This document shows positions 1,333-14,784 of a DNA stretch of 37,014 nucleotides, in pieces. The DNA is from Bacilli bacterium. GTDB lineage: Bacteria; Bacillota_I; Bacilli_A; RF39; UBA660. The DNA is taken from the NCBI GenBank assembly GCA_045613165.1, contig JAZLAK010000093.1, forward strand, positions 1-37,014. The letters are read 5' to 3'. The position numbers and the translations under genes were made by a program. Every line of letters begins with the position of its first letter. Positions within the stretch are counted from its first letter, which is position 1. The notes beneath the pieces were generated by a model, which did no database searches, was not told where the DNA came from, and saw nothing but the letters and a program-made list of their open reading frames with translations.

Positions 1333-3501
1333 GTGAACTATATAAAAGGCAAATTTAAACAATCTATATTTAAAGGCGATACAGGATATAATGTTGGTTT
1401 ATTTAAAATAACTGAAACTAATGATCCTGAAATGGAAGAACTAGTAAAAAAAAGCGTAACTTTTACTGGTTATTTTGCCGATCTAACTATTGATGATACA
1501 TACATCTTCTATGGTTCTTTAGTTTATCATGATAGATATGGATATCAATATAGTGTAACAAGTTATGAAAAAATAGTTCCTACTGGACATGATGCAATAA
1601 TTGATTTCTTAACTAGTCCATTAATTAAAGGTTGCGGTGAAAAAACTGCGGAAAAGATAGTTAATATATTAGGTGACAACGCAATAGAAAAAATCAAAGA
1701 AAATATTAATAATTTAGATTTAATACCAAAACTTACTGATACTAAGAAAAAAAATATATATAATTCAATATTAAAATATTATGAATCAAATGAAACAATT
1801 ATAAAATTAAAAGAATATGGTTTTACCATAAAAGAAAGTATGAAATTAATAAATATTTATGGTAACAGCATATTAAATATAGTAGAAAATAATGTATATA
1901 GTTTAATAGATATAATTGATTTCAAAACGTTAGATAAAATCTACTTAAATATTTATAAAGAAACAACAAACTTACGTATTTTAGCTTGTATAGTTGAAAC
2001 AATGAAAAGAATAACTTTTAATAATGGAGATACTTACTCTTATAAGGATGAAATTATAAAAAGTTTATATGAGTATTTTAATATAAGTATAGATAGTACT
2101 GAATACTTTAGTATGTTATCTAATGAAGGTCAAATAGTTATTAAAGATGATAAGTATTATTTAAGAGATTATTATGAAGCAGAAATAAATATTGTTAAAA
2201 ATTTAGAAGCAATAAATAGTAAAGAAGTATATCCTGAAAAGAATTTAAAAAAATATCTAAAAAAACTAGAAAGTGAATTAGATATTAAATATAACGAAGA
2301 ACAAATAAATGCTATAACAAGCATATTTGAAAATAATATAACTATTATTACAGGAGGACCAGGAACAGGTAAAACAACTATAATAAATGGGATATTAAAT
2401 CTATATAAAATGGTTTATAAACTAACAGATAGTGGATTAACAAACAAAGTTGCACTTATTGCACCAACTGGTAGAGCTTCTAAAAGAATGAGTGAAACAA
2501 CTAATTTTGGTGCTTCTACTATTCATAGATACTTAAAATGGAATAAAGAAAATAATACATTTGGTATTAATGAATTTAACAAAAATAATCACGAGTTAGT
2601 AATAATTGATGAAACAAGTATGATAGATACGATTCTTTTTGATAGTCTTTTAAAAGGTTTAAAAAGAAATATAAAAATAGTATTTGTTGGTGATGAATAT
2701 CAATTACCAAGCGTATCACCTGGATTAGTGCTAAATGATTTGATAGAATCTAATAAATTTAAACATGTAAGACTTAATAATATTTATAGACAAAGCAATA
2801 ACTCTTATATACCACTATTGGCTCAAGAAATAAAAAACAAAGAATTAAGTGAGTATTTGGATAAAAAAGATGATTATAATTTTATAGAATGCAATACTAG
2901 GGATATAAAAAGAATAGTTTTAGATATTGCTAAAAAATCTTTAGATAAAGGATTAAATGATAATAATATTCAAATACTAGCTCCAATGTATAAAGGAGAA
3001 ATAGGTATAGATAATTTAAATATAAACCTGCAAAATATATTTAATCCACACGATGATAATTTAAACGAAGTAGTCATTGGAACTATTACATATAGAGTTA
3101 ATGATAAAGTCTTAAACCTAGTTAATGATGTAGATAAAGGTATTTATAATGGAGATATTGGTTATATTTATGATATTGATATAAATAGCAAAAGTGATTT
3201 TATTAGAATAAATTTTGATAATAATATTGTATCTTTTAAAAGAGATGAATTAGCAAGTATAAAACACGCTTATGCTATTAGCATACATAAAGCACAAGGT
3301 AGTGAATTTGATCATGTAATAATACCTATATCAAAAACTTATAGCAAGATGCTATATAATAAATTAATTTATACAGGGATATCACGAGCTAAGAAAAGTT
3401 TGATAATAATAGGTAGTAAAGAAGCATTTATATATTCAGTAGAAAATGATTATAGTAAATCTAGAAAAACCTCACTTTTAGAAATACTTACGAATAATTA
3501 G
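1333..3501 (+). CDS. recD2: RecD2-type ATP-dependent 5'-3' DNA helicase (SF1B)
   Basis: Walker A is GGPGTGKTT and Walker B is VIIDETSM. Also present are VGDEYQLPSV and the C-terminal AISIHKAQGSEFDHVII motif. The N-terminus YIKGKFKQSIFKGDTGYNVGLFKI resembles B. subtilis RecD2/YrrC. Start is GTG with an upstream GGTGA. Confidence 0.85.
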   Translation: MNYIKGKFKQSIFKGDTGYNVGLFKITETNDPEMEELVKKSVTFTGYFADLTIDDTYIFYGSLVYHDRYGYQYSVTSYEKIVPTGHDAIIDFLTSPLIKGCGEKTAEKIVNILGDNAIEKIKENINNLDLIPKLTDTKKKNIYNSILKYYESNETIIKLKEYGFTIKESMKLINIYGNSILNIVENNVYSLIDIIDFKTLDKIYLNIYKETTNLRILACIVETMKRITFNNGDTYSYKDEIIKSLYEYFNISIDSTEYFSMLSNEGQIVIKDDKYYLRDYYEAEINIVKNLEAINSKEVYPEKNLKKYLKKLESELDIKYNEEQINAITSIFENNITIITGGPGTGKTTIINGILNLYKMVYKLTDSGLTNKVALIAPTGRASKRMSETTNFGASTIHRYLKWNKENNTFGINEFNKNNHELVIIDETSMIDTILFDSLLKGLKRNIKIVFVGDEYQLPSVSPGLVLNDLIESNKFKHVRLNNIYRQSNNSYIPLLAQEIKNKELSEYLDKKDDYNFIECNTRDIKRIVLDIAKKSLDKGLNDNNIQILAPMYKGEIGIDNLNINLQNIFNPHDDNLNEVVIGTITYRVNDKVLNLVNDVDKGIYNGDIGYIYDIDINSKSDFIRINFDNNIVSFKRDELASIKHAYAISIHKAQGSEFDHVIIPISKTYSKMLYNKLIYTGISRAKKSLIIIGSKEAFIYSVENDYSKSRKTSLLEILTNN

Positions 3502-3799: not shown

Positions 3800-5227
3800 A
3801 TGAAAGATAATAAAAATATAACTAGTAGAGATATAGATTTTGCTAAATGGTATAACGATATAATTAGAGAAGCTGATCTAATAGATTATTCAAGTGTAAA
3901 AGGAAGTATGATTATTAGACCATATGGATATGCTATTTGGGAAAGTATGGTTAATGTATTAGATAAAAAGTTTAAAGAATTAGGACACGTTAATATACAA
4001 ATGCCTATGTTTATACCTGAATCTTTACTTAATATAGAAAAAGAACACGTAGAAGGTTTTGCTCCTGAAGTTGCATGGGTTACACATGGTGGAGAGAATA
4101 AGTTAGATGAAAGAATGTGTGTAAGACCTACAAGTGAAACTTTATTCTGTGATCATTTTAAAAAAGTTATTAAAAGTTATAGAGATTTACCTTTATTATA
4201 TAATCAATGGTGTACTATTGTTAGATGGGAAAAAGAAACTAGACCATTCTTAAGAAGTAGAGAAATATTATGGCAAGAAGGTCATACTATGCACGCAACA
4301 GAAGCAGAAGCAAGAGAAGAAACATTAAGAATGTTTAAAGTTTATGAAGATTTCCAAAAAAACTATTTAGCGATACCTGTTATAGTGGGAAGAAAAAGTG
4401 AAAAAGAAAAATTCGCTGGTGCTGAAGAAACTTATACTATTGAAGCTATGATGTATAATGGTGTTGCGCTACAAAACGGAACAAGTCATTATTTTGGTCA
4501 AAAATTTGCAAAAGCTTTCGATATTAAATTTTTAAATAAAGAAAATAAATGGGAATATCCATATCAAACAAGTTGGGGAGTTACTACTCGTATGATTGGC
4601 GGTTTAATAATGGTTCATAGTGATGATTATGGTTTAGTATTGCCTCCAAATATTGCTCCAATTAAAGTATCTATTGTTCCAATAAAAGAAACAGAAAAAG
4701 TTATAGAAACAATTAAATACTTCGAAGATGGATTGAAAGCTAACGATATTACATTTGTAACTGATAATAGTGATAAGTCTCCTGGATATAAATTTGCCGA
4801 AAGCGAAGTAAAAGGATATCCAATTAGATTAGAAATAGGACCTAGAGATTTAGAAAACAATCAAGTTACATTAGTAAGACGTGATACAAGAGAGAAAATC
4901 ACTTTAGAAAAAAGTGATGCAATAAATAAAATCAAAGATTTACTTATTGAAATCCAACATAACCTATATAACAAAGCTTTAGAAAGAAGAAACACAATGT
5001 TATATAACAATGTTAGAACTTATGAAGAATTAGCTGATATAGCTAATAATAAACCTGGTTTTGCCTTAGTAAACTGGTGTGGTGAAACTGCATGTGAAGA
5101 CAAAATTAAAGAAGATTTAGGTTTAAAATCACGTTGTATACCATTTGGACACGAAGATAGTGATGGCAACTGTGTTGTTTGTGGTAAACAAGGGAAACAT
5201 AAAATTTATTTTGGTAAACAATATTAA
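3800..5227 (+). CDS. proS: Prolyl-tRNA synthetase, archaeal/eukaryotic-like type (no INS editing domain)
   Basis: At 475 aa, it begins DFAKWYNDIIREADLIDYSSVKGSMIIRPYGYAIWE. Class II motifs are present (RPTSET, FLRSREILWQEGHT). The C-terminal region has a cysteine cluster (WCGETACEDKIKE...CVVCGKQG), typical of the short ProRS type found in Clostridia. Confidence 0.9.
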   Translation: MKDNKNITSRDIDFAKWYNDIIREADLIDYSSVKGSMIIRPYGYAIWESMVNVLDKKFKELGHVNIQMPMFIPESLLNIEKEHVEGFAPEVAWVTHGGENKLDERMCVRPTSETLFCDHFKKVIKSYRDLPLLYNQWCTIVRWEKETRPFLRSREILWQEGHTMHATEAEAREETLRMFKVYEDFQKNYLAIPVIVGRKSEKEKFAGAEETYTIEAMMYNGVALQNGTSHYFGQKFAKAFDIKFLNKENKWEYPYQTSWGVTTRMIGGLIMVHSDDYGLVLPPNIAPIKVSIVPIKETEKVIETIKYFEDGLKANDITFVTDNSDKSPGYKFAESEVKGYPIRLEIGPRDLENNQVTLVRRDTREKITLEKSDAINKIKDLLIEIQHNLYNKALERRNTMLYNNVRTYEELADIANNKPGFALVNWCGETACEDKIKEDLGLKSRCIPFGHEDSDGNCVVCGKQGKHKIYFGKQY

Positions 5228-5311: not shown

Positions 5312-6598
5312 ATGAATAAAACAAAAACAATATATTTTTTAAGTGCTGTAGTATTAATTATAGGATGTTACGCACTAAACTTGAGTTATAGTTTATTCGT
5401 TCAAACTGAAGATAAAGAAATAGTTAATGCAACTGTTCCTAGTTTATTATATAATTTAGAACAAGAAGAATTCTTAATAAAACCAAACGAAAAAACTATT
5501 ATTACATTAAATGTTAATAACGTAGGAAACGCAAATATAAATTATGGTATCTTATTAGATGAAACTAATTTAAATGAGAATATAAAAATAGAGTTAGTAG
5601 ATATTGAAAATAATAATATGACTGGAAATTTAAAAGCCAATAGTAAAGGCTTTGTTAAATTGTATATTGAAAATAATCAAGAAATAGAACAAACATTAAA
5701 ATTTAAATTAGAAGCTACATACGAAACGTTGAATTTTGATACAAGTAAATATATATCTAATACTAAAATAGATATTGAAAATAAATATAAAATAAAATTA
5801 AATGACAATATTTTATTAGATAATAGAATAATTAAAACAGAAGAAAATTCACAACTTTATAAAACTATTGATGATTATGGAGAAACATGGTATTTTAAAG
5901 GTGAACAAAATCATAACTACATCTCTTTTGCTAATCATATTTGGAGAGTAGTTAGAATTAATGGTGATAATACAATTCGTTTAATACTAAATGATGTATT
6001 AGAAAATAAAACTGTATTTAATAATGTTAATACAAACGCTATAGGTTATATGTATGGAAATACAATAGATGGCAATGGACTTATACAATATAATACATAC
6101 AGCAGTACAGTAAAAGAACTAGTAGATAAATTTTATGAAACTAATTTAAAAGAAAATTTTGATGAGTTTTTAGCAGATACAATATTTTGTGGAGAAAATA
6201 TCGATTTAACAAATGTAAATGATTTAAACCTTAAATGTGATGAAGGGGTTATCGAGAATAAAAATCGCTATACATCAAAATTAGATGAAATTGATTTAAT
6301 TAATAATGTAAGTATTAACAATGATTTAACTTATCCGATTGCATTATTATCTCGAAAAGAAATATTGTTAGCAGAATATAAAGATCAAGAAGAAAATATA
6401 GTTAGTTACTTAAACGATTTAGAATTAGATGATAATTGGTGGACACTGGCGCCTACAGAAGCAGAATATAATAAAGAACTTTATGTTAGACCTGTAATTA
6501 ATTTAAAATCAAATGTATTAATAAAATCAGGTAATGGTACAATAGATAATCCATATGAGATAATATTAGAGAAAGAATCAAGCGAAACGCTTGACTAA
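5312..6598 (+). CDS. Membrane-anchored or secreted protein of unknown function
   Basis: The N-terminal hydrophobic anchor is IYFLSAVVLIIGCYALNL. A beta-strand-like Asn-rich module follows, then a C-terminal region with WRVVRINGDNTIRLIL, DNWWTLAP and YVRPVINLKS...GNGTIDNPYEI. No family securely recognised. Confidence 0.7.
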   Translation: MNKTKTIYFLSAVVLIIGCYALNLSYSLFVQTEDKEIVNATVPSLLYNLEQEEFLIKPNEKTIITLNVNNVGNANINYGILLDETNLNENIKIELVDIENNNMTGNLKANSKGFVKLYIENNQEIEQTLKFKLEATYETLNFDTSKYISNTKIDIENKYKIKLNDNILLDNRIIKTEENSQLYKTIDDYGETWYFKGEQNHNYISFANHIWRVVRINGDNTIRLILNDVLENKTVFNNVNTNAIGYMYGNTIDGNGLIQYNTYSSTVKELVDKFYETNLKENFDEFLADTIFCGENIDLTNVNDLNLKCDEGVIENKNRYTSKLDEIDLINNVSINNDLTYPIALLSRKEILLAEYKDQEENIVSYLNDLELDDNWWTLAPTEAEYNKELYVRPVINLKSNVLIKSGNGTIDNPYEIILEKESSETLD

Positions 6599-6619
6599 AA
6601 TAGTAAAATAAAGTAAAAT
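6591..6619 (+). promoter_or_regulatory. Sigma-A-type promoter of the T-box/hisS transcription unit
   Basis: TTGACT (6591-6596, overlapping the upstream stop codon), a 17-nt spacer, then TAAAAT (6614-6619). Confidence 0.6.
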
Positions 6620-6625
6620 ACTTAC

Positions 6626-6835
6626 ATATTCTTATTCAAAGAAAAGTAGAAAAATAATATTTATTAAAGAGAGAGTTTGGTTGCTGAAAAAACTTATAAA
6701 TTTATTTTTTGAAGACACTTTGTATTATATAAGAAACGTGTTATTACGTTAAAAATTAAAGAGAGTACACTTGTAAAGTAAGGTGGCACCGCGGGAATTT
6801 TCTCGTCCTTACGATTCTCAAGTGTTTTTTATTTA
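6626..6835 (+). promoter_or_regulatory. T-box riboswitch leader upstream of hisS
   Basis: The T-box core AAAGTAAGGTGGCACCGCGGG lies at 6775-6795. The antiterminator folds as GUAAGG / 7-nt bulge UGGCACC / GCGGGA-AUUU-UCUCGU / CCUUAC (6778-6812). Stem I elements are an AGAGAG bulge (6668-6675), distal loop GGUUGCUGAAA (6679-6689), S-turn halves AGUA (6645-6648) and GAA (6711-6713), and lower helix CAAAG/CUUUG (6637-6641 / 6718-6722). ACACTTG (6767-6773) pairs with CAAGTGT (6819-6825), followed by T5 (6826-6830). Confidence 0.85.
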
Positions 6836-6850
6836 GAAAGAGGGATTATA

Positions 6851-8113
6851 ATGATAACAAAACCAAAAGGAACTTATGATGTTATAGGAACAGATGCAAA
6901 AAAACGTAAATATGTATGTGATGTAATTGATGCTATATGCGAAAAATATAATTACACTTATATAGAAACACCAATCTTTGAGGCTAGCGAATTATTTCAT
7001 AGAAGCGTTGGAGAAACAAGTGATATTGTAACTAAAGAAACATATGACTTTATAGATCGTGGTAATAGAAATGTAACTCTACGCCCAGAAGGTACAGCAG
7101 GTGTTGTAAGAAGTTTTATAGAAAATAAAATGTATGGAAATATGAGTGAACCTATTAAAGTTTATTATAACGGACCTATGTTTAGATATGAAAGACCACA
7201 AAGTGGTAGAACTAGACAATTTACTCAATTTGGTATAGAACTAATCGGTACTGATGATGTCATGAGCGATGCTGAAATAATTAGTTTAGTGTATAATACT
7301 TATAAATTATTAGGCATAAATATAAAAATTCAAATAAATAGTTTAGGAGATACAGAATCTCGTGATAATTATAGAAAGGCTTTAATTGAATACTTTAAAC
7401 CACATATGAACGAATTATGTGAAGATTGTAATAATAGATTAGAAAAAAATCCATTAAGAATATTAGATTGTAAAATAGATGCTGATAGTGATTTAATGAA
7501 AAATGCTCCAAAAACAATAGATTATTTAAACGAATCTAGTAAAGATAGATTTAATAAGCTACAAGAATATTTAGAATTGATGGAAATCGATTATGAAGTT
7601 AATACTAAATTAGTTAGAGGTTTAGATTATTATAATCATACAGTTTTTGAAGTAGTAGGGGATATTCCTGAATTTGGTAGTCAAAATGTACTAGGCGGTG
7701 GCGGAAGATACAACGGTCTAGTAGAACAATTAGGTGGACCTAGTATTCCAGCAGTAGGATTTGCAATGGGATTAGATAGAACTATTCTTGCTATGGAAAC
7801 ATTAGGAGTGAATTTCAAAGTTAGAGATAATATAGATATATTCATTATGTATGGTAATGAAGAAGAAAAAGAAACTGCAACTTATTTATTACAAGATTTA
7901 CGTATGAATGGTTTTGTTTGTGAAACTGACTATATGGGTAAAAGTTTTAAAAATCAATTTAAATCAGCTGATAGATTTAATAGTAAATATTTAATTATAT
8001 TAAATAGCGAAGATATAGCAAATTATCAAGTTAAATTAAAAGATAACGAAACAAAAGAAGAAGAATTAGTTAATATTAATGATTTAATAGATCATTTAGA
8101 TATGAAAATTTAA
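6851..8113 (+). CDS. hisS: Histidyl-tRNA synthetase
   Basis: KGTYDV, LRPEGTAGVVR, MFRYERPQSGRTRQFTQFG and the GGGGRYNGL class II HisRS motifs are all present. Length 420 aa. Confidence 0.93.
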   Translation: MITKPKGTYDVIGTDAKKRKYVCDVIDAICEKYNYTYIETPIFEASELFHRSVGETSDIVTKETYDFIDRGNRNVTLRPEGTAGVVRSFIENKMYGNMSEPIKVYYNGPMFRYERPQSGRTRQFTQFGIELIGTDDVMSDAEIISLVYNTYKLLGINIKIQINSLGDTESRDNYRKALIEYFKPHMNELCEDCNNRLEKNPLRILDCKIDADSDLMKNAPKTIDYLNESSKDRFNKLQEYLELMEIDYEVNTKLVRGLDYYNHTVFEVVGDIPEFGSQNVLGGGGRYNGLVEQLGGPSIPAVGFAMGLDRTILAMETLGVNFKVRDNIDIFIMYGNEEEKETATYLLQDLRMNGFVCETDYMGKSFKNQFKSADRFNSKYLIILNSEDIANYQVKLKDNETKEEELVNINDLIDHLDMKI

Positions 8114-8123
8114 GGGTGAGATT

Positions 8124-9494
8124 ATGGATATAAAAGAGATATTAAAGAATAAAAAAATAGGAGATAAAGTAACTGTTAGTGGATGGATAAGAAATCATAG
8201 AAAACAAGCTAAATTTGGTTTTATCGATTTAAATGATGGTACTTGTTATAACAGTTTACAAGTAGTTTATAATGATGATTTAGATTGTTTTGAAGAATTA
8301 ACTAAATTAAAATTAGGTGCTGCTATAACAGTTAATGGAACAGTTATAGAATCTCCTGCAAGCGGACAAGATGTAGAATTAGAATTAGAGAGTTTTGTTT
8401 TGGAAGGTGATTGTGATGATGATTATCCATTACAAGCAAAAGGGAGACCTACAAGAGAATATTTAAGAGAAATAGCATATTTAAGACCAAGAACTAATCT
8501 ATTTAGAGCGGTTTTTAGAATTAGAAGTGTTGCAGCATATGCTATACATAAATATTTCCAAGAAAACGGATTTGTTTATTTTCACGCTCCATTAATTACA
8601 GCAAGTGATTGTGAAGGTGCTGGAGAAATGTTTAGAGTTACTACTCTAGATCTACAAAGAGTTGCTTCATCAGGAAAAGTAGAAAATGATAAAGACTTTT
8701 TTGGAAAAGAAGCAGCATTAACTGTAAGTGGACAATTACAAGCAGAAACTTTCGCTTTAGCTTATAAGAAAACTTATACATTTGGACCTACATTTAGAGC
8801 TGAAAATTCAAACACTAAAACTCATGCAAGTGAATTCTGGATGATAGAACCTGAAATGGCTTTTACTGACTTAAATGGCGATATGGAAATTATGGAAAGT
8901 ATGTTAAAATATGTAGTTCAATATGTTTTAGATAATGCTAAAGAAGAAATAGAATTCTGTGATAAATTCGTTGAAAAAGGTTTAATTGAAAAATTAACTA
9001 AGTTAGTAAACAGTGAATTTACTAGAATTACTCATAAAGATGTTATAACTCTTTTAAAAAATGCTGATGTTAAATGGGAATTTGAGCCTGAATATGGTGA
9101 AGATATCGCTAAAGAGCATGAAAAATATATTACAGAATACTTTAATGGACCAGTGTTTATAACAAATTGGCCTAAAGATATTAAAGCATTCTACATGAAA
9201 CAAAATGAAGATGGAGAAACTGTTGCAGCAGTAGATCTAGAAGTTCCAGGAGCTGGAGAATTAATGGGCGGAAGCCAAAGAGAAGAAAACTATGAAAAAT
9301 TAGTTGCACGTATGAAAGAACTAGATATGGATGAAAAATCTTTAGAATGGTACTTAAATTTAAGAAGATTTGGTGGATGTACTCATTCAGGATTTGGAAT
9401 GGGATTTGAAAGATTACTTATATATCTAACTGGAGTAGAAAATATAAGAGATGTTATACCATATCCTAGAACTCCAGGAAATTGTGAGTATTAA
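8124..9494 (+). CDS. asnS: Asparaginyl-tRNA synthetase
   Basis: It has an N-terminal OB fold, then LRPRTNLFRAVFRIRS...FHAPLITASDCEGAGEMFRV, FGPTFRAENSNT and GGSQRE...HSGFGMGFERL. These are AsnRS-type class IIb motifs. The gene starts 10 nt after hisS, preceded by a GGGTGAG RBS. Confidence 0.9.
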   Translation: MDIKEILKNKKIGDKVTVSGWIRNHRKQAKFGFIDLNDGTCYNSLQVVYNDDLDCFEELTKLKLGAAITVNGTVIESPASGQDVELELESFVLEGDCDDDYPLQAKGRPTREYLREIAYLRPRTNLFRAVFRIRSVAAYAIHKYFQENGFVYFHAPLITASDCEGAGEMFRVTTLDLQRVASSGKVENDKDFFGKEAALTVSGQLQAETFALAYKKTYTFGPTFRAENSNTKTHASEFWMIEPEMAFTDLNGDMEIMESMLKYVVQYVLDNAKEEIEFCDKFVEKGLIEKLTKLVNSEFTRITHKDVITLLKNADVKWEFEPEYGEDIAKEHEKYITEYFNGPVFITNWPKDIKAFYMKQNEDGETVAAVDLEVPGAGELMGGSQREENYEKLVARMKELDMDEKSLEWYLNLRRFGGCTHSGFGMGFERLLIYLTGVENIRDVIPYPRTPGNCEY

Positions 9495-9513: not shown

Positions 9514-9542
9514 TTGATATAAACTATAGATATTGTTATAAT
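9514..9542 (+). promoter_or_regulatory. Consensus-like sigma-A promoter (sense, drives the small hydrophobic ORF)
   Basis: TTGATA (9514-9519), a 17-nt spacer, then TATAAT (9537-9542). Confidence 0.7.
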
Positions 9543-9609
9543 TAAATTCAGGAACATTGAGTTGTTGGGTGTCTACCTCTTACTCAAATAGAGAGGAGGT
9601 TTGATAAGA

Positions 9610-9702
9610 ATGAATAAAAGAGTCTTTGTAATAGAAGTTCTCAAATATTTATCTATCATTTTATCGCTCCTTATCATTATGATAATAGCCATAAAAAAAT
9701 GA
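9610..9702 (+). CDS. 30-aa hydrophobic peptide, candidate type I toxin
   Basis: GAGAGGAGG (9591-9599) lies 10 nt before ATG 9610. Translation by hand gives MNKRVFVIEVLKYLSIILSLLIIMIIAIKK, ending at TGA: one transmembrane helix with a Lys-Lys tail. It has its own promoter and terminator and a convergent antisense promoter. It was not in the ORF track because it is too short. Confidence 0.55.
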   Translation: MNKRVFVIEVLKYLSIILSLLIIMIIAIKK

Positions 9703-9802
9703 CACTTAAGCATTTAGCTTAAATGTCTCAACCAATTTGGGTAGACATTCAACATGAAAAAACTGAATGTTCCCTTTTTTATTATATGAAGTTTCGCTTC
9801 AT
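9693..9802 (-). ncRNA. Predicted antisense RNA (~110 nt, ends approximate), candidate type I antitoxin
   Basis: It would start about 7 nt downstream of the minus-strand TATAAT. It would end at the minus-strand terminator: hairpin 9727-9701 (GACATTTAAGC-TAAAT-GCTTAAGTGTC, one mismatch) followed by ATTTTTTTA (9700-9692). It is complementary to the last 3 codons and the whole 3' UTR of the small ORF. Confidence 0.45.
9744..9781 (+). terminator. Hairpin plus T-run ending the small-ORF transcript
   Basis: ACATTCA (9745-9751) pairs with TGAATGT (9764-9770), followed by TCCC and TTTTTT (9775-9780). The 3' arm can alternatively pair with the 5' UTR (9551-9563). Confidence 0.55.
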
Positions 9803-9808
9803 AAATAC

Positions 9809-9837
9809 ATTATAACATAATTCTTTCTTTATATCAA
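9809..9837 (-). promoter_or_regulatory. Consensus sigma-A promoter on the minus strand, convergent with the small ORF
   Basis: Read on the minus strand: TTGATA (9837-9832), a 17-nt spacer, then TGT-TATAAT (extended -10; hexamer at 9814-9809). It sits only about 20 nt upstream of the aspS start and points away from aspS. Confidence 0.65.
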
Positions 9838-9856: not shown

Positions 9857-11611
9857 ATGAAAAAAATATTTAATAATGAAATAAATGAAACTTATATTAA
9901 TCAAACAATTGAATTAACCGGATGGGTTAATCGTGTTAGAAATTTAGGTGGATTATTATTTATAGATTTAAGAGATAGAACCGGTATTATTCAACTTGTA
10001 GTTAATCCTGAAAATGAATTCTACGAAACTGCTACCAACTTAAAAAATGAATATGTTATAAGAGTTTCTGGTAAAGTAGTTGAAAGAATTAGTGCGAATG
10101 AAAAAATAGATACAGGTAAAATAGAAGTAATAGTAGAAAATTTAACAGTTTTAAATAAATCTAATGAAACACCATTTCAAATTATTGATGATGTAAATTC
10201 TACTGAAGAAACTAGATTAAAATATAGATATTTAGATATAAGAAGACCATCATTAACAAATAATTTAGTTTTAAGACACAAAATAACTATGTCTATTAGA
10301 AATTATTTAGATAAGTTAAACTTCTTAGAAGTTGAAACACCAATACTTTGTAAAAGTACACCAGAAGGTGCTAGAGACTATTTAGTACCATCACGTATTT
10401 TTAACGGAAAATTCTTTGCATTGCCTCAATCACCTCAAATCTATAAACAATTATTAATGGTTGGAGGAATTGAAAGATATTTCCAAATAGCAAAATGTTT
10501 TAGAGATGAAGATCTACGAGCAGATAGACAACCTGAATTCACACAAGTAGATGTTGAAATGAGTTTTGTTGAAGAAAACGACGTAATGACTCTATGTGAA
10601 AATCTAGTTGCAAATGTATTTAAAGAAGTACGCGGTATAGATATTAAATTACCATTACTACGTATGAAATATGATGATGCAATAAATATGTATGGTAGTG
10701 ATAAACCTGATTTAAGATTTGATATGCATATAAATGATATAACAAATATATTTGAAAATACTAATTGTGAATTCTTAAAAAATACTATTGAAACTAACGG
10801 AATTATTAACGCTATAGTAGTAAGAAATTTAGCTGATAAATATTCTAGAAAAGAAATAGATAAATTAACTGATTATGTTAAAAAATACAAAGCTAGTGGA
10901 TTAGCTTACATTAAATATGGTGAAGAAATTACCGGAAGTCTAGTAAAATCATTAAGTGAAGAAGAAATAAATGCTATCAAAGATAGTTTAGGTGTATTAG
11001 ATAATGATATTGTATTTATAATAAGTGGAAAGAAAAATATAGTTAAAACATCTTTAGGAGCATTAAGATGTAAAGTTGCTAAAGATAATAACTTAATAAA
11101 ACAAGACGATTACAAACTTCTATGGGTAACAGATTTTCCTTCATTTGATTGGAGCGAAGAAGAAAATAGATTTATGGCATGCCATCATCCTTTTACAGCA
11201 CCAAAAGATGAAGATATTGAAAAACTATTAACTGATAAAGCAAATTGTTATTCTAAAGCCTACGATATCGTAATTAATGGATATGAAGCTGGTGGTGGAA
11301 GCATAAGAATTCATGATGAGAATGTACAAGAAAAAATGTTTGAAGCTTTAGAGTTGACTAAAGAAGATATAAATGAAAAATTCGGTTTCTTTGTAGATGC
11401 TTTAAAATTTGGTACACCTCCGCATGGTGGTTTCGCATTAGGACTTGATAGATTAACAATGTTATTAGCTGGTACTGAAAATATAAGAGATGTAATTGCA
11501 TTCCCTAAAACAGCATCTAGTAGCGATTTAATGAGCGAAGCTCCAAATAATGTTGATGAATACCAATTAAAAGAATTAGGAATAGAAATAAGCGGTGACA
11601 AAAATGAGTAA
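9857..11611 (+). CDS. aspS: Aspartyl-tRNA synthetase, bacterial type
   Basis: It has 584 aa with an OB fold, FQIAKCFRDEDLRADRQPEFTQVD, the bacterial insertion domain, and GGGSIRIH...HGGFALGLDRL. RBS is AAAGGAG. Confidence 0.93.
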   Translation: MKKIFNNEINETYINQTIELTGWVNRVRNLGGLLFIDLRDRTGIIQLVVNPENEFYETATNLKNEYVIRVSGKVVERISANEKIDTGKIEVIVENLTVLNKSNETPFQIIDDVNSTEETRLKYRYLDIRRPSLTNNLVLRHKITMSIRNYLDKLNFLEVETPILCKSTPEGARDYLVPSRIFNGKFFALPQSPQIYKQLLMVGGIERYFQIAKCFRDEDLRADRQPEFTQVDVEMSFVEENDVMTLCENLVANVFKEVRGIDIKLPLLRMKYDDAINMYGSDKPDLRFDMHINDITNIFENTNCEFLKNTIETNGIINAIVVRNLADKYSRKEIDKLTDYVKKYKASGLAYIKYGEEITGSLVKSLSEEEINAIKDSLGVLDNDIVFIISGKKNIVKTSLGALRCKVAKDNNLIKQDDYKLLWVTDFPSFDWSEEENRFMACHHPFTAPKDEDIEKLLTDKANCYSKAYDIVINGYEAGGGSIRIHDENVQEKMFEALELTKEDINEKFGFFVDALKFGTPPHGGFALGLDRLTMLLAGTENIRDVIAFPKTASSSDLMSEAPNNVDEYQLKELGIEISGDKNE

Positions 11612-11897
11612 ATTTACAAAAGAAATGATTGATAATTATGCAGATAAACTACTTATTGGATTAACAGAAGAAGAAAATGAAACAGTTTTAAATGAATTTG
11701 AAATAATCGAAGCACGTATGAATTTAATAAATGAAATAGAAGGCTTAAGCGAAGTTGAACCAATGCATTATCCATTTACTATTGAATCAAAACCACGTGA
11801 TGGTAAAGAAATAAAGAATGATAATGTAGAAGACCTACTTAAAAATAGTGATAAAGTAAGCGATAGAGAAATAGAAGTTCCAAAGGTGGTGGGATAA
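11604..11897 (+). CDS. gatC: Asp/Glu-tRNA amidotransferase subunit C
   Basis: The 97-aa product is colinear in length and layout with Bacillus GatC. ATG 11604 overlaps the aspS stop (11609-11611). The ORF-track GTG 11595 is a possible but less likely start. Confidence 0.8.
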   Translation: MSKFTKEMIDNYADKLLIGLTEEENETVLNEFEIIEARMNLINEIEGLSEVEPMHYPFTIESKPRDGKEIKNDNVEDLLKNSDKVSDREIEVPKVVG

Positions 11898-13351
11898 TGG
11901 ACTCAGTAATATTAGATTTACATAATAAATTAAAAAACAACGAAATCACAAGCGAAGAACTTATTAAAGAAACTTTAGAAAAATCTAAAAATATACAAAA
12001 CGACTTAAATCCATTTGTCACTATTTGCGAAGAAACAAACATTCCTAAATCAATTGATAATGTACTATCAGGAATACCTTATGTAGCAAAAGATAACTTA
12101 TCTACAAAAGATATTTTATCTACAGGAAGTAGCAATACTTTAAAAGATTACGTTCCATTTTTTGATGCAACTGTTATAGAAAGATTGAATAAAAAGAACG
12201 CATGTTTAATTGGTAAAAGTGCTATGGACGAATTAGGACTAGGTGGTACAGGTACTACTTGTCATACTGGCGTCACAAAAAATCCTTGGGACAAAACAAG
12301 AATAACCGGAGGATCAAGTTCTGGTTCTGCTTGTTTAGTTGCAAGCGGTGTCGTTCCATTTGCATTGGGAAGTGATACAGGCGATTCAATTAGAAAACCA
12401 GCTGCATATTGTGGTATCGTTGGATACAAACCAACTTATGGTGCAATAAGTAGATTTGGATTATTTCCTTTCGCATCTAGTTTAGACCATGTTGGCGTTT
12501 TAACAAGAACTGTTAAGGATGCTGCTATAGTAGTTGACAATGTTGTTGGTATAGATGAGAATGATATGACTTCTATAGACTTAAAATCAAACTTAACTGA
12601 ATCTTTAACAAACAATATAAGTGGTAAAAAATTATTTTATATAAAAAATATGCTTGATATAAACAATTATGAAAATCCTAGCGATGATCTAAAAAATATA
12701 ATAAATGAATTTAATAAAACTATTGAATTAGCACGTTCTTTAGGCGCAACTGTGGATAGTGTTGAATTTGATCAAAATTTATTGAATGCAATTTTTCCAA
12801 TATATCAATGTATTTCTTGCGCAGAAGCTACAAGTAATGATTCTAACTTAACAGGAATAATATTTGGGCCTAGAGGTGAAGGCGAGAATTATATTGATAT
12901 GATTAAAAATCATAGAACTAATGGATTCTGTTCTTTAATAAAAAGACGTTTCATAATAGGCTCATATGTATTACAAAAAGAAAATCAAGAAAAGTATTTC
13001 TTAAATGCAAAAAGAGTTAGAAGATTATTAGTAGAAAAATTTAATGAATTATTTAAAACTTATGATGCTATGATTATGCCTGCTGCCGGATCAATTGCAC
13101 CAAAAATAGATAGTATCAACGAAGTAATTAATGGTACAGGTTCGATGCAAGAAGTATTAGAAAATTATATGGCAATCGGTAACTTTGGCGGATATCCTAG
13201 TATAACAATTCCAAATGGCTTTGTTAGTGGTATGCCTATAGGAATAAACTTAACTGGAGCAGTTTATGAAGATGCGAATGTACTTAATATTGCTTATACA
13301 TTAGAAAGTAATATGAATTATAGAAATCAAATAGCAAAGGAAGTGGAATAA
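11897..13351 (+). CDS. gatA: Asp/Glu-tRNA amidotransferase subunit A
   Basis: The amidase signature GGSSSGSA and GSDTGDSIRKPA are present. Its ATG shares one base with the gatC TAA (TAATG). Confidence 0.92.
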   Translation: MDSVILDLHNKLKNNEITSEELIKETLEKSKNIQNDLNPFVTICEETNIPKSIDNVLSGIPYVAKDNLSTKDILSTGSSNTLKDYVPFFDATVIERLNKKNACLIGKSAMDELGLGGTGTTCHTGVTKNPWDKTRITGGSSSGSACLVASGVVPFALGSDTGDSIRKPAAYCGIVGYKPTYGAISRFGLFPFASSLDHVGVLTRTVKDAAIVVDNVVGIDENDMTSIDLKSNLTESLTNNISGKKLFYIKNMLDINNYENPSDDLKNIINEFNKTIELARSLGATVDSVEFDQNLLNAIFPIYQCISCAEATSNDSNLTGIIFGPRGEGENYIDMIKNHRTNGFCSLIKRRFIIGSYVLQKENQEKYFLNAKRVRRLLVEKFNELFKTYDAMIMPAAGSIAPKIDSINEVINGTGSMQEVLENYMAIGNFGGYPSITIPNGFVSGMPIGINLTGAVYEDANVLNIAYTLESNMNYRNQIAKEVE

Positions 13352-14784
13352 TGGAACTTATACCTGTAATAGGTTTAGAAATGCACGCTGAGATGAAAAG
13401 TACAACAAAAGTATTCTCACCAGCAGAAAACACTTATAACGACATTTCTAACCTACATGTTAATAAAATAGATATGGCTTTCCCTGGTATACTTCCTCTT
13501 GTTAATATGGAATGTATGGAAAAAGCAATTGAAATGGCTCTAATTCTAAATTGTAATATTCCTAAAATATTTATGTTTGATAGAAAAAATTATTATTATC
13601 CAGATTTACCAAAAGGTTACCAAATAACTCAATTCAATAAACCAATTGGTACAAATGGTTATTTAACTATTGATGTAGATGGCGAAGAAAAAAAAGTAGA
13701 AATATTAGATATTCATTTAGAAGAAGATTCAGCATCTTTAGACCATTACTCATACTTTTCGCTAATCGATTATAATAGAGCGGGTGTTCCTTTATTAGAA
13801 ACTGTTTCAGCGCCTTGTATACATTCTAGTAAAGAAGCAGTAGCATTCTTAGACACAATGAAAAATATATTTAGATATACTGGAATAAGCGATGCTGATA
13901 TAAAAAGAGGACAAATAAGATGTGATGTTAACGTATCAATGATGGAAAAAGGTTCTAGTGAATTTGGTACTAAAGTAGAAGTTAAAAATGTAAATAATAT
14001 TGCAAATGTTGCAGCAACAATTGAATATGAAATAAAAAGACAAACCGAACTTATTTCAGCTGGAAGAAAAGATGAAATAGTACAAGAAACTAGAAGATAT
14101 GATGAAGCAACGAATACAACAATTTCAATGCGTAGCAAAGCTGATGCTATAGATTATAAATACTTTGTAGAACCAAACATCCCTCCTTTTAATATAAGTG
14201 ATGAATTAGTTGAAGAAATTAAATCAAGAATACCAGTTTTACCAAACGAAAAGAAATTAAAATATATTAATGAACTTAATTTAAGTAGCATAGAAGCCAA
14301 TATAATTGTTAAAGATAAAGAAGTAAGTGATTATTTTGATAAATTAATTGAATTAGGTACAGATATTAAACTAAGTACTAACTGGGTTATTAATCAAGTA
14401 ACTGATTACATAAATAACAATGATATAAACATAAGTGAATTATATTTAAATCCTGAAAGATTAAAATATATTATTGATCAAGTAATTAGTAATAAAATTA
14501 GTAATAAACAAGCTAAAGAATTATTTTCTAAATCATTAGAATTAAATCGTGAACCTAGCGAGCTAATTAAAGAACTAGGTATGGAACAATTAAATGATAG
14601 TGATGAATTAAGAACATTGATAATTAGTCTACTTGATAATAATAAAACACAAGTAGAGGAATACAAAAATGGTAAAACTAATATGTTCCAATTCTTTGTA
14701 GGACAAGTAATGAAAGAAACAAAAGGTAAAGCAAATCCAGTAATGGTTAAAGAAATTCTAACTGAAGAAATAAGCAACAGATAA
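13351..14784 (+). CDS. gatB: Asp/Glu-tRNA amidotransferase subunit B
   Basis: VIGLEMHAEM, KNYYYPDLPKGYQITQ, IHLEEDSA and RCDVNVS are present, and the C-terminus has a YqeY-like tail. Its ATG shares one base with the gatA TAA. Confidence 0.92.
   Translation: MELIPVIGLEMHAEMKSTTKVFSPAENTYNDISNLHVNKIDMAFPGILPLVNMECMEKAIEMALILNCNIPKIFMFDRKNYYYPDLPKGYQITQFNKPIGTNGYLTIDVDGEEKKVEILDIHLEEDSASLDHYSYFSLIDYNRAGVPLLETVSAPCIHSSKEAVAFLDTMKNIFRYTGISDADIKRGQIRCDVNVSMMEKGSSEFGTKVEVKNVNNIANVAATIEYEIKRQTELISAGRKDEIVQETRRYDEATNTTISMRSKADAIDYKYFVEPNIPPFNISDELVEEIKSRIPVLPNEKKLKYINELNLSSIEANIIVKDKEVSDYFDKLIELGTDIKLSTNWVINQVTDYINNNDINISELYLNPERLKYIIDQVISNKISNKQAKELFSKSLELNREPSELIKELGMEQLNDSDELRTLIISLLDNNKTQVEEYKNGKTNMFQFFVGQVMKETKGKANPVMVKEILTEEISNR

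Follow-up and report, generated by a model that had tools for sequence, protein, structure and literature searches.

The window analysed here is a stretch of 37,014 nucleotides (nt) from a Bacilli bacterium (contig JAZLAK010000093.1 of assembly GCA_045613165.1, positions 1-37,014, forward strand). Its spacer between the genes asnS and aspS holds a short cassette with a 30-codon open reading frame (ORF) and two convergent promoters, and this cassette is quite probably a self-contained type I toxin-antitoxin-like module of a previously undescribed family. The type I assignment had been proposed before from the letters of the window (the sequence-only reading); it was supported by the present comparison and survived every in-silico test applied, including a test of frame conservation. 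Among homologous copies the ORF, both promoters, both terminators and the RNA helices are conserved, and the family is multi-copy, patchy and decaying in its distribution, like a selfish element. If the peptide is toxic, this would be a new type I toxin-antitoxin family in uncultured small-genome gut Bacilli (kin of 'Clostridium sp. CAG:433', 'Mycoplasma sp. CAG:611' and Candidatus Faecimonas).

Elements of the cassette

All seven sequence features listed in the sequence-only reading were found in place by direct reading of the sequence. The cassette comprises the following elements (SD, Shine-Dalgarno sequence; aa, amino acids; UTR, untranslated region).

9514-9542, plus strand: sense (putative toxin) promoter, TTGATA (9514-9519), 17-nt spacing, TATAAT (9537-9542), with an extended -10 TG at 9534-9535
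9549-9780, plus strand: predicted toxin messenger RNA (mRNA), about 232 nt, ends placed from promoter and terminator
9551-9577, plus strand: 5' strand of the long-distance helix, GGAACATTGAGTTGTTGGGTGTCTACC
9575-9599, plus strand: anti-SD/SD hairpin, ACCTCT (9575-9580) facing the SD GAGAGGAGG (9591-9599)
9602-9658, plus strand: start-codon sequestering helix, UGAUA..AUG with codons ~13-16
9610-9702, plus strand: ORF of the putative membrane toxin, ATG at 9610, TGA at 9700-9702, encoding MNKRVFVIEVLKYLSIILSLLIIMIIAIKK
9691-9802, minus strand: predicted antisense RNA, about 110 nt, three stem-loops, ends likewise placed
9701-9727, both strands: hairpin GACACTTAAGC-ATTTA-GCTTAAATGTC; on the minus strand the antisense terminator stem, followed by ATTTTTTTAT, on the plus strand an exposed mRNA hairpin
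9740-9780, plus strand: sense intrinsic terminator, which is also the 3' strand of the long-distance helix, GGGTAGACATTCA..TGAATGTTCCC plus T6
9786-9802, minus strand: 5' hairpin of the antisense RNA, AUGAAGCGAAACUUCAU, found in all members and starting 6-8 nt after the -10
9809-9837, minus strand: antisense (putative antitoxin) promoter, TTGATA (9837-9832), 17-nt spacing, TGTTATAAT (ending at 9809)

The near-perfect plus-strand promoter and the perfect minus-strand promoter that had been claimed are present and unique in the window. On both strands of the whole 37 kb, TTGATA-N14-TGNTATAAT matched at these two promoters only, which face each other, against a chance expectation of 0.00 (100 shuffles), and the two ranked at the top of 31 promoter-like matches in the 6.5 kb scanned. 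The sense terminator was likewise present as described, a 3' hairpin followed by T6, and its hairpin GGGTAGACATTCA..TGAATGTTCCC folds alone at -10.4 kcal/mol. A terminator scan recovered the minus-strand terminator proposed at 9727-9701 with its ATTTTTTTAT tail.

Homologous copies were collected by a metagenome DNA scan with the pattern CTGAATGTTCC-N8-16-ATGAAGTTT, derived from the part conserved in the window and in the loci L007 and L003 of two relatives. The scan returned 65 stretches, about 52 of which hold a cassette. A profile search covering the window and all 144 fetched loci gave 76 matches: 53 from promoter to promoter (including the window, L007 and L003), 20 of the 3' part only, one of the 5' part only, which is cut by a contig end, and two others. 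All parts of the cassette recur in register at more than 50 other loci, and 37 distinct intact copies were used to compare promoters and folds. The window itself, searched over its 37 kb, yielded no second copy.

Both promoters hold their positions across these 37 members. The antisense promoter follows TTGnnn-17-TGnTAnnAT at a fixed position in 37/37, with a spacer sequence that varies freely, and a conserved intrinsic terminator lies 110-120 nt downstream of it; for the predicted antisense transcript this is strong support in silico. The sense promoter has a -35 TTG, mostly 17-nt spacing and a -10 placed 6-8 nt before a conserved GGAAC, and its spacer varies as well. Consensus matches number 7-11 of 12 for the sense promoter, with TG in most members, and 8-11 of 12 for the antisense promoter, with TG in all, so that the sense promoter is weaker on average. 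The motif TTTGTTCG(A/C) was seen by eye directly upstream of the sense -35 in many of 36 aligned cassettes from unrelated contexts (for example L088, ~2880-2900, minus strand, and L132, ~4530-4545); it is absent from the window and L007 and may be an UP element or operator.

The reading frame and its peptide

The 30-codon ORF at 9610-9702 is present as claimed. Throughout 49 family copies it is exactly 30 codons long, ends with Ile-Lys-Lys-stop and has GGAGG 7-9 nt upstream of the start. These ORFs encode 28 distinct peptides with the consensus MKKRxFxIKVLRYISIILxLLTILVxVIKK, in which I17, L18, L20, I28, K29 and K30 are invariant. At its N-terminus the peptide is basic and MKKR-like; a hydrophobic core at residues 14-28, judged from its sequence to be a transmembrane stretch, and a Lys-Lys end follow.

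The frame carries a coding signature. None of 31 distinct ORF sequences has an in-frame stop, whereas the other two frames are interrupted in 31/31 and 18/31 of them. Variability by codon position is 0.32, 0.23 and 0.42, highest at the third, and the ratio of nonsynonymous to synonymous changes (pN/pS) is 0.48 in frame versus 0.82 and 1.14 off frame. The UTRs contain indels, the ORF none. By this signature the ORF can be taken as a gene. The sequence-only reading had held that conservation of RNA structure without that of the frame would speak for a cis-regulatory element; both frame and structure are conserved, and the type I reading survives.

These data also bear on whether the cassette might be a non-coding repeated intergenic element, similar to miniature inverted-repeat transposable elements or repetitive extragenic palindromes, that makes no gene products. 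Multiple short (~350 bp), strongly structured copies at intergenic sites would suit such an element, which is nevertheless very unlikely: the ORF is invariant in length and free of in-frame stops, its third position is the most variable and the low pN/pS is seen in its frame only, an SD precedes the start codon by 7-9 nt, both promoters are conserved in position while their spacers vary, and neither terminal inverted repeats nor target duplications were seen when filled and empty sites were compared.

Two other reading frames were considered and rejected. The minus-strand 46-aa ORF at 9713-9573 is not conserved, with a shortest open stretch of 23 codons or fewer in its frame class, and the plus-strand 30-aa ORF at 9723-9815 was found in 4/37 copies only. 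One cassette (L081, 4269-4664), which lies between rsgA and rpe in sense orientation, has an ORF ending ..IKKDI, two residues longer than in other members.

Fold of the predicted mRNA

The predicted sense RNA (9549-9781), folded alone, gave a strong structure of -72 kcal/mol (z = -7.3), in which a 5'-3' helix is closed and the SD is paired. The first ~30 nt are predicted to pair with the last ~35 nt. The two blocks of 5'-3' complementarity described in the sequence-only reading could be read directly from the sequence, 9551-9563 being complementary to 9761-9773 at 12/13 positions and GTCTACC (9571-9577) to GGTAGAC (9740-9746). All of the 37 homologous mRNAs fold in a similar way, with -65 to -84 kcal/mol, a 5'-3' closure of 23-29 bp, and SD and AUG mostly paired.

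A consensus structure was computed with RNAalifold from 34 sense transcripts and comprises the long-distance helix, a helix between the start codon and codons ~13-16, a small hairpin within the ORF and the hairpin of the antisense terminator. Over the whole predicted structure, 95.4% of cells hold standard pairs versus 39-43% when the partners are slid, 17 pairs have changes on both sides, and 0/500 shuffles match the observed paired percentage, cell count or covariation score. The long-distance helix joins alignment columns 5-31 with 216-249; its 22 pairs are formed in 97.6-99.5% of cells, and both sides have changed at five of them (for example CTAC/GTAG to CGTC/GACG).

The start region appears to be held twice. 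As had been claimed, the CCTCT/ACCTC element that can pair with the SD is in place, and the SD is paired in the predicted fold. Averaged over the 37 members, the probability of being paired is 0.78 at the SD and 0.91 at the AUG. With fixed columns the anti-SD/SD helix is paired in 74%, a subgroup using a shifted anti-SD. The start-codon helix (columns 59-69 with 105-115) is paired in 95.4% of cells and has four pairs with changes on both sides; the window is an exception to its detail, as AUGAAU pairs slightly differently there. A second potential anti-SD was seen inside the ORF (window 9644-9690), where codons 19-21 hold CUCCU, TCGCTCCTT, and the SD remained paired after in-silico removal of the 5' anti-SD.

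The stem of the hairpin at 9701-9727 is conserved with compensatory changes. No part of the transcript varies more than its apical stem and loop, which are hypervariable and contain indels, and the linker that follows the hairpin.

The predicted antisense RNA

For the antisense RNA of ~110 nt that had been proposed to cover the last three codons and the 3' UTR, promoter, terminator and layout are as predicted. Folded from 9802 to 9690, the predicted RNA has z = -4.5. Its complementarity to the mRNA extends over ~105 nt and takes in codons 28-30 and all of the 3' UTR, and its predicted overlap with the sense RNA spans 9691-9780. The family-invariant Ile-Lys-Lys codons ATAAAAAAA have their complement in the U-tract of its terminator.

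An alignment of the two RNAs revealed mimicry: nt 3-30 of the mRNA are near-identical to nt 30-64 of the antisense RNA apart from the loop, because both pair with the same 3' segment. Towards the 5' UTR and start region of the mRNA, the antisense RNA had no significant complementarity, duplex energies lying ~0.5-2 standard deviations from shuffled controls.

Copies, contexts and remnants

Metagenomes from the human gut and from other animal-associated sources commonly contain the family. No locus from the metagenomes adjoins asnS, aspS or hisS; flanking genes include rsgA/rpe, rpsD/clpP, uvrA/lgt, RNase J, thyX, O-methyltransferase with U32 peptidase, and large surface proteins, and the orientation of the cassette relative to its neighbours varies. 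Two or three copies, or one copy together with a remnant, were counted at no fewer than 16 loci. Tandem arrangements (L106, L119 and L128) are frequent, as are pairs ~1.4 kb apart with a 275-aa ORF between them, and one 134-kb contig has several sites.

Several loci were lacking the 5' half of the toxin gene while antisense promoter and terminator are intact (L130, 5753-5998; L102, 1794-2026; L086, 10188-10377; L133, 103-277; L143, 89-245; L128, 5953-6170). At least six independent toxin-less remnants keep the antisense gene and are possibly orphan antitoxin genes. Loss of the toxin half while the antisense gene stays is the pattern predicted for a toxin-antitoxin pair, in which the toxin can go first and the antitoxin cannot.

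The paired cassettes were of two diverged subtypes flanking the conserved 275-aa ORF (L132, 4512-6315; also L098, L110, L111, L116, L131 and L140), and this ORF had no Pfam match. Subtype a ends ..IIMI(I/V)VIKK and subtype b reads MK(T/I)KTF..LLSTLLVLAIKK; the two share ~70% identity, with compensatory changes distinguishing their long-distance helices. In two different contexts, cassettes directly adjoin RNase J genes (L083, 2359-4910; L091, 6582-8702).

With more than 30 aligned natural variants, covarying helices, paralogue-specific loops and decay intermediates, the family is a ready system to study how long-distance mRNA folding cooperates with a 3'-overlapping antisense RNA, how cross-talk between paralogous modules is avoided, and by which route modules are lost, apparently toxin first.

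The asnS-aspS site in relatives

Relatives of the window were compared at the orthologous site, where the cassette is absent, intact or decayed (percentages are AspS identities to the window).

L002, 93%, the closest relative: 15-nt spacer without cassette
L007, 83%: whole cassette with 82% nucleotide identity and an intact ORF, MKKRTFIVNVLRYICIILSLLIIMINAIKK
L001, 81%: no asnS, hisS abuts aspS
L003, 80%: decayed cassette copy
L004, 80%, sister of L003: right-hand ~60 nt left only
L005, 80%: spacer of ~30 nt without cassette
L071, 76%: spacer of ~14 nt without cassette

The decayed copy in L003 has lost the sense promoter, its ATG is changed to ACG, codon 2 is a stop and the frame is shifted; its antisense promoter is retained as TTGATT-17-TGTTACAAT. 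From this pattern at one and the same site, the cassette is dispensable, untied to the aspS start and prone to decay.

The placement of the cassette had raised the question of whether it might be a cis-regulatory leader or attenuator of aspS-gatCAB that controls read-through of the T-box-regulated hisS-asnS transcript, with an incidental ORF. It does lie inside the operon in sense orientation. Within the 6.5 kb scanned, the stretch from asnS to the cassette contained no terminator and the one from the cassette to aspS no plus-strand promoter that could be found, so transcription of aspS must cross the cassette. Read-through under T-box control would therefore carry the toxin ORF, and transcription of aspS-gatCAB must pass the toxin terminator against the antisense promoter, which calls for caution when expression of these genes is considered in this organism. 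However, the nearest relative manages with 15 nt and others with 30-66 nt, L007 has an unrelated 134-aa ORF between cassette and aspS, 0 of ~50 other members adjoin aspS and their orientation to neighbours varies, and the reading frame is conserved with a coding signature. As the cassette is dispensable and decaying, a leader as its primary function is excluded by the relatives' spacers, the family contexts and the coding signature, which makes this explanation extremely unlikely; a secondary effect on aspS in the window lineage may still exist. The sequence-only reading had called the position unusual. This holds for the window lineage, in which the cassette accounts for the 362-nt gap inside an aminoacyl-tRNA synthetase operon, but is incidental to the family, since the nearest relative is without the cassette and other members lie between unrelated genes in both orientations. 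The operon placement is probably a side effect of the landing site of the module.

Comparison with known families and type I systems

Searches of Pfam and NCBIfam with the peptide (E up to 10) gave sub-threshold noise and matched no toxin family, and Rfam (E up to 10) gave no antitoxin family but eukaryotic snoRNA-type noise only. The earlier statement that the peptide fits no named family holds for these three libraries. No match was obtained by blastn in phage and plasmid collections, and a pattern scan of viral contigs returned one match, which was not a cassette. The family has been invisible to annotation: a look-up of the exact 30-aa product found no annotated gene on record, and phmmer found no similar protein among 1.84 billion representatives, a result expected for a 30-aa query and rarely called ORFs and no evidence of rarity. 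The literature searched contained no report of type I systems in these hosts.

The layout of the cassette fits the Gram-positive 3'-overlap class of type I systems defined in the T1TAdb paper (PMC8594479), and peptide and locus features fit the type I criteria of Fozo et al. 2010 (PMC2887945). Such toxins have fewer than ~70 aa, a transmembrane stretch and a short polar or charged C-terminus, as the cassette peptide would by its sequence; their mRNAs have 150-400 nt with own promoter and terminator, and the predicted mRNA has ~232 nt with elements conserved in position in 37 members. Tandem or multiple intergenic copies are another trait of the class that is found in the family, and by modelling the mRNA would be restrained in translation by its own structure, as the class demands. 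For a peptide that halts growth or kills when overexpressed, and an RNA that averts this, the support is indirect and comes from the patchy distribution, the decay starting at the toxin and the orphan antisense genes. By its sequence, the family combines the Gram-positive 3'-overlap layout with what looks like a hok/AapA-like fold-back.

The closest likeness in layout is to bsrG/SR4, txpA/RatA, bsrE/SR5 and yonT/SR6, with a Firmicute host, convergent promoters and an antisense RNA of ~100 nt that overlaps the last part of the ORF and the 3' end of the toxin transcript (PMC8594479). These Bacillus subtilis systems also share a small hydrophobic peptide with a basic C-terminus and a partly sequestered SD. 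In bsrG/SR4, the terminator loop of the antitoxin makes the first contact with a loop of the mRNA (PMC3834814), and the equivalent loops are the hypervariable part of the cassette. Silencing of txpA and yonT depends on RNase III (PMC3531473). There are differences as well: neither peptide nor RNA of the cassette has a sequence match to this group (Pfam, NCBIfam, Rfam); the group resides on prophages or prophage-like elements, whereas the cassette is flanked by housekeeping genes and has no phage or plasmid match; the cassette mRNA is closed by a long 5'-3' helix, the 3' strand of which is the antisense target; and the peptide is shorter (30 aa) and fixed in length.

With hok/Sok and aapA/IsoA, the cassette shares a compact full-length mRNA that would be translationally inert through a 5'-3' long-distance interaction, with several anti-SD options, and several chromosomal copies whose antisense RNAs are specific to their module (PMC6733600); AapA peptides, with ~30 aa, are of similar length. 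In hok and aapA, the SD is hidden by the long-distance interaction itself, and the antisense RNA binds the 5' region of a 3'-processed mRNA. By modelling, SD and AUG of the cassette are instead hidden locally and remain paired if the 3' strand is taken away or blocked; it is this 3' strand of the long-distance helix with which the antisense RNA would pair, mimicking the mRNA 5' end. Moreover, hok (Enterobacteria) and aapA (Helicobacter) belong to another phylum and have no homology to the cassette.

Fst/RNAII (par of pAD1) and Fst-like/Ldr systems resemble the cassette in that they occur in Firmicutes, encode a membrane peptide of ~33 aa, are transcribed convergently over a common terminator region, limit translation by a 5' structure, and are known in tandem chromosomal copies (PMC2887945). 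RNAII pairs with repeats in the mRNA 5' region outside the overlap (PMC8594479), where the cassette antisense RNA stays near shuffled controls. The cassette further differs by its overlap of ~105 nt, and no Fst or Ldr profile was matched.

Type I toxins of Clostridioides difficile have ~50 aa, and the systems are located on prophages. Like the cassette, these systems occur in a Firmicute of the gut and combine a small hydrophobic (in the cassette, putative) toxin with an antisense RNA that is convergent and overlapping, in several paralogues per genome (e.g. CD2517.1/RCd8; PMC5961336, PMC6563280). One of these sources (PMC5961336) describes C. difficile systems as adjoining CRISPR arrays, whereas the cassette lies between housekeeping genes. 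In searches of profile libraries (Pfam, NCBIfam), no sequence similarity to the cassette was detected.

Proposed mechanism and its weight

The following scheme is consistent with these features. A constitutive promoter would yield the ~232-nt mRNA for a 30-residue peptide with one hydrophobic helix. This mRNA would be built silent, its first ~30 nt pairing with the last ~35 nt and thereby opening the terminator hairpin and closing the molecule, while the upstream anti-SD would hold the SD and codons 13-16 the AUG. From a convergent promoter of equal or better quality, the ~110-nt antisense RNA would be made. By analogy to bsrG/SR4 (PMC3834814), its terminator loop may first contact the exposed, family-variable mRNA hairpin at 9701-9727; it would then zip along the 3' UTR and displace the mRNA 5' end that it mimics. 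The duplex may be degraded, as by RNase III in txpA/RatA (PMC3531473), leaving little or no peptide while antisense RNA is present. Upon loss of the antisense RNA, residual translation would let the peptide insert in the membrane, and growth would stop.

A more specific version is conceivable but rather doubtful. The antitoxin might act as a mimic of the mRNA 5' end that displaces one strand of the covariation-supported 5'-3' closure and exposes both mRNA ends to nucleases. If true, fold-back control of the hok/AapA kind would be combined with a Bacillus-type 3' overlap, a regulatory logic that no type I system is known to use. As the module of the window lineage lies in the only transcription path to aspS-gatCAB, T-box read-through and synthesis of toxin mRNA would be coupled there.

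Several points weigh against a toxin-antitoxin module. Both RNAs and their ends are predictions from promoter and terminator, and we infer both transcripts, the toxicity of the peptide, its neutralisation by RNA, the nuclease and the activation route. Homology to any proven toxin was not found with Pfam and NCBIfam profiles. The compensatory changes in the long-distance helix stem mostly from one subfamily (6/34 sequences) and represent few independent events. The ratio of 3'-only to 5'-only remnants is 20:1, an excess inflated by a search pattern that lies in the 3' half; several remnants also stem from the same orthologous event, and this count was not used as strong evidence. Finally, activation was modelled thermodynamically with the 3' region blocked, two 3' truncations, one 5' truncation and transcripts of nascent length. 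Neither SD nor AUG loses its pairing in the full-length mRNA, when the antisense RNA is bound, or after truncation at the 3' or the 5' end, and the AUG is exposed only in nascent RNAs shorter than ~codon 13. As no modelled form frees the SD, thermodynamics suggests no activation route and assigns no role to the 5'-3' helix.

Some of these points would equally suit a benign small membrane protein, for example a regulator or membrane-complex subunit, with a cis-antisense RNA tuning its expression. Any antisense-regulated small membrane protein would have such coding and antisense features, toxicity is presumed, and the weak profile resemblances of the peptide are to small membrane regulators (MgtR, E = 0.13; MacP, E = 0.39; both far below threshold). 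Such a protein is unlikely, though, to be present or absent at the same site among close relatives and progressively decayed, to occur in several diverged copies per contig and in tandem arrays, to keep no partner gene across contexts, to have SD and AUG doubly sequestered, and to leave remnants that retain the antisense gene alone. Distribution, sequestration and remnants are typical of selfish toxin modules and not of a housekeeping accessory protein, and argue for the toxin-antitoxin module.

The operon around the cassette

The neighbouring genes in the window are as follows.

6630-6813: T-box leader upstream of hisS (Rfam, 103.5 bits)
6851-8113: hisS
8124-9494: asnS
asnS-aspS spacer with the cassette: 362 nt
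9857-11611: aspS
downstream of aspS: gatC
11897-13351: ORF, gatA by match to relatives
13351-14784: ORF, putative gatB, assumed by position

The AspS relatives are nearly all metagenome-assembled genomes, labelled uncultured Bacilli, Erysipelotrichaceae, Tenericutes, 'Mycoplasma sp. CAG:611', 'Clostridium sp. CAG:433' or Candidatus Faecimonas, and originate from human, primate, ruminant, rabbit and chicken guts.

The 134-aa ORF of L007 (3574-3978) has its own SD and is unrelated to the cassette; it had no Pfam match and no copy in the other fetched loci. The aspS ribosome-binding region of the window is closer to that of this ORF than to the aspS one of L002 or L007, which hints that the window lineage may have deleted the ORF. 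Two loci (L006, 4001-6957; L008, 4001-7506) have two aspS-like genes in tandem, the second being ~40% identical to the window AspS. In the T-box leader region (6591-6813), a TTGACT-17-TAAAAT promoter lies ahead of the leader. The expected specifier loop at ~6711-6718 reads GAAGACAC, and triplets for Asp (GAC) and His (CAC) overlap there, which would suit an operon with hisS and aspS.

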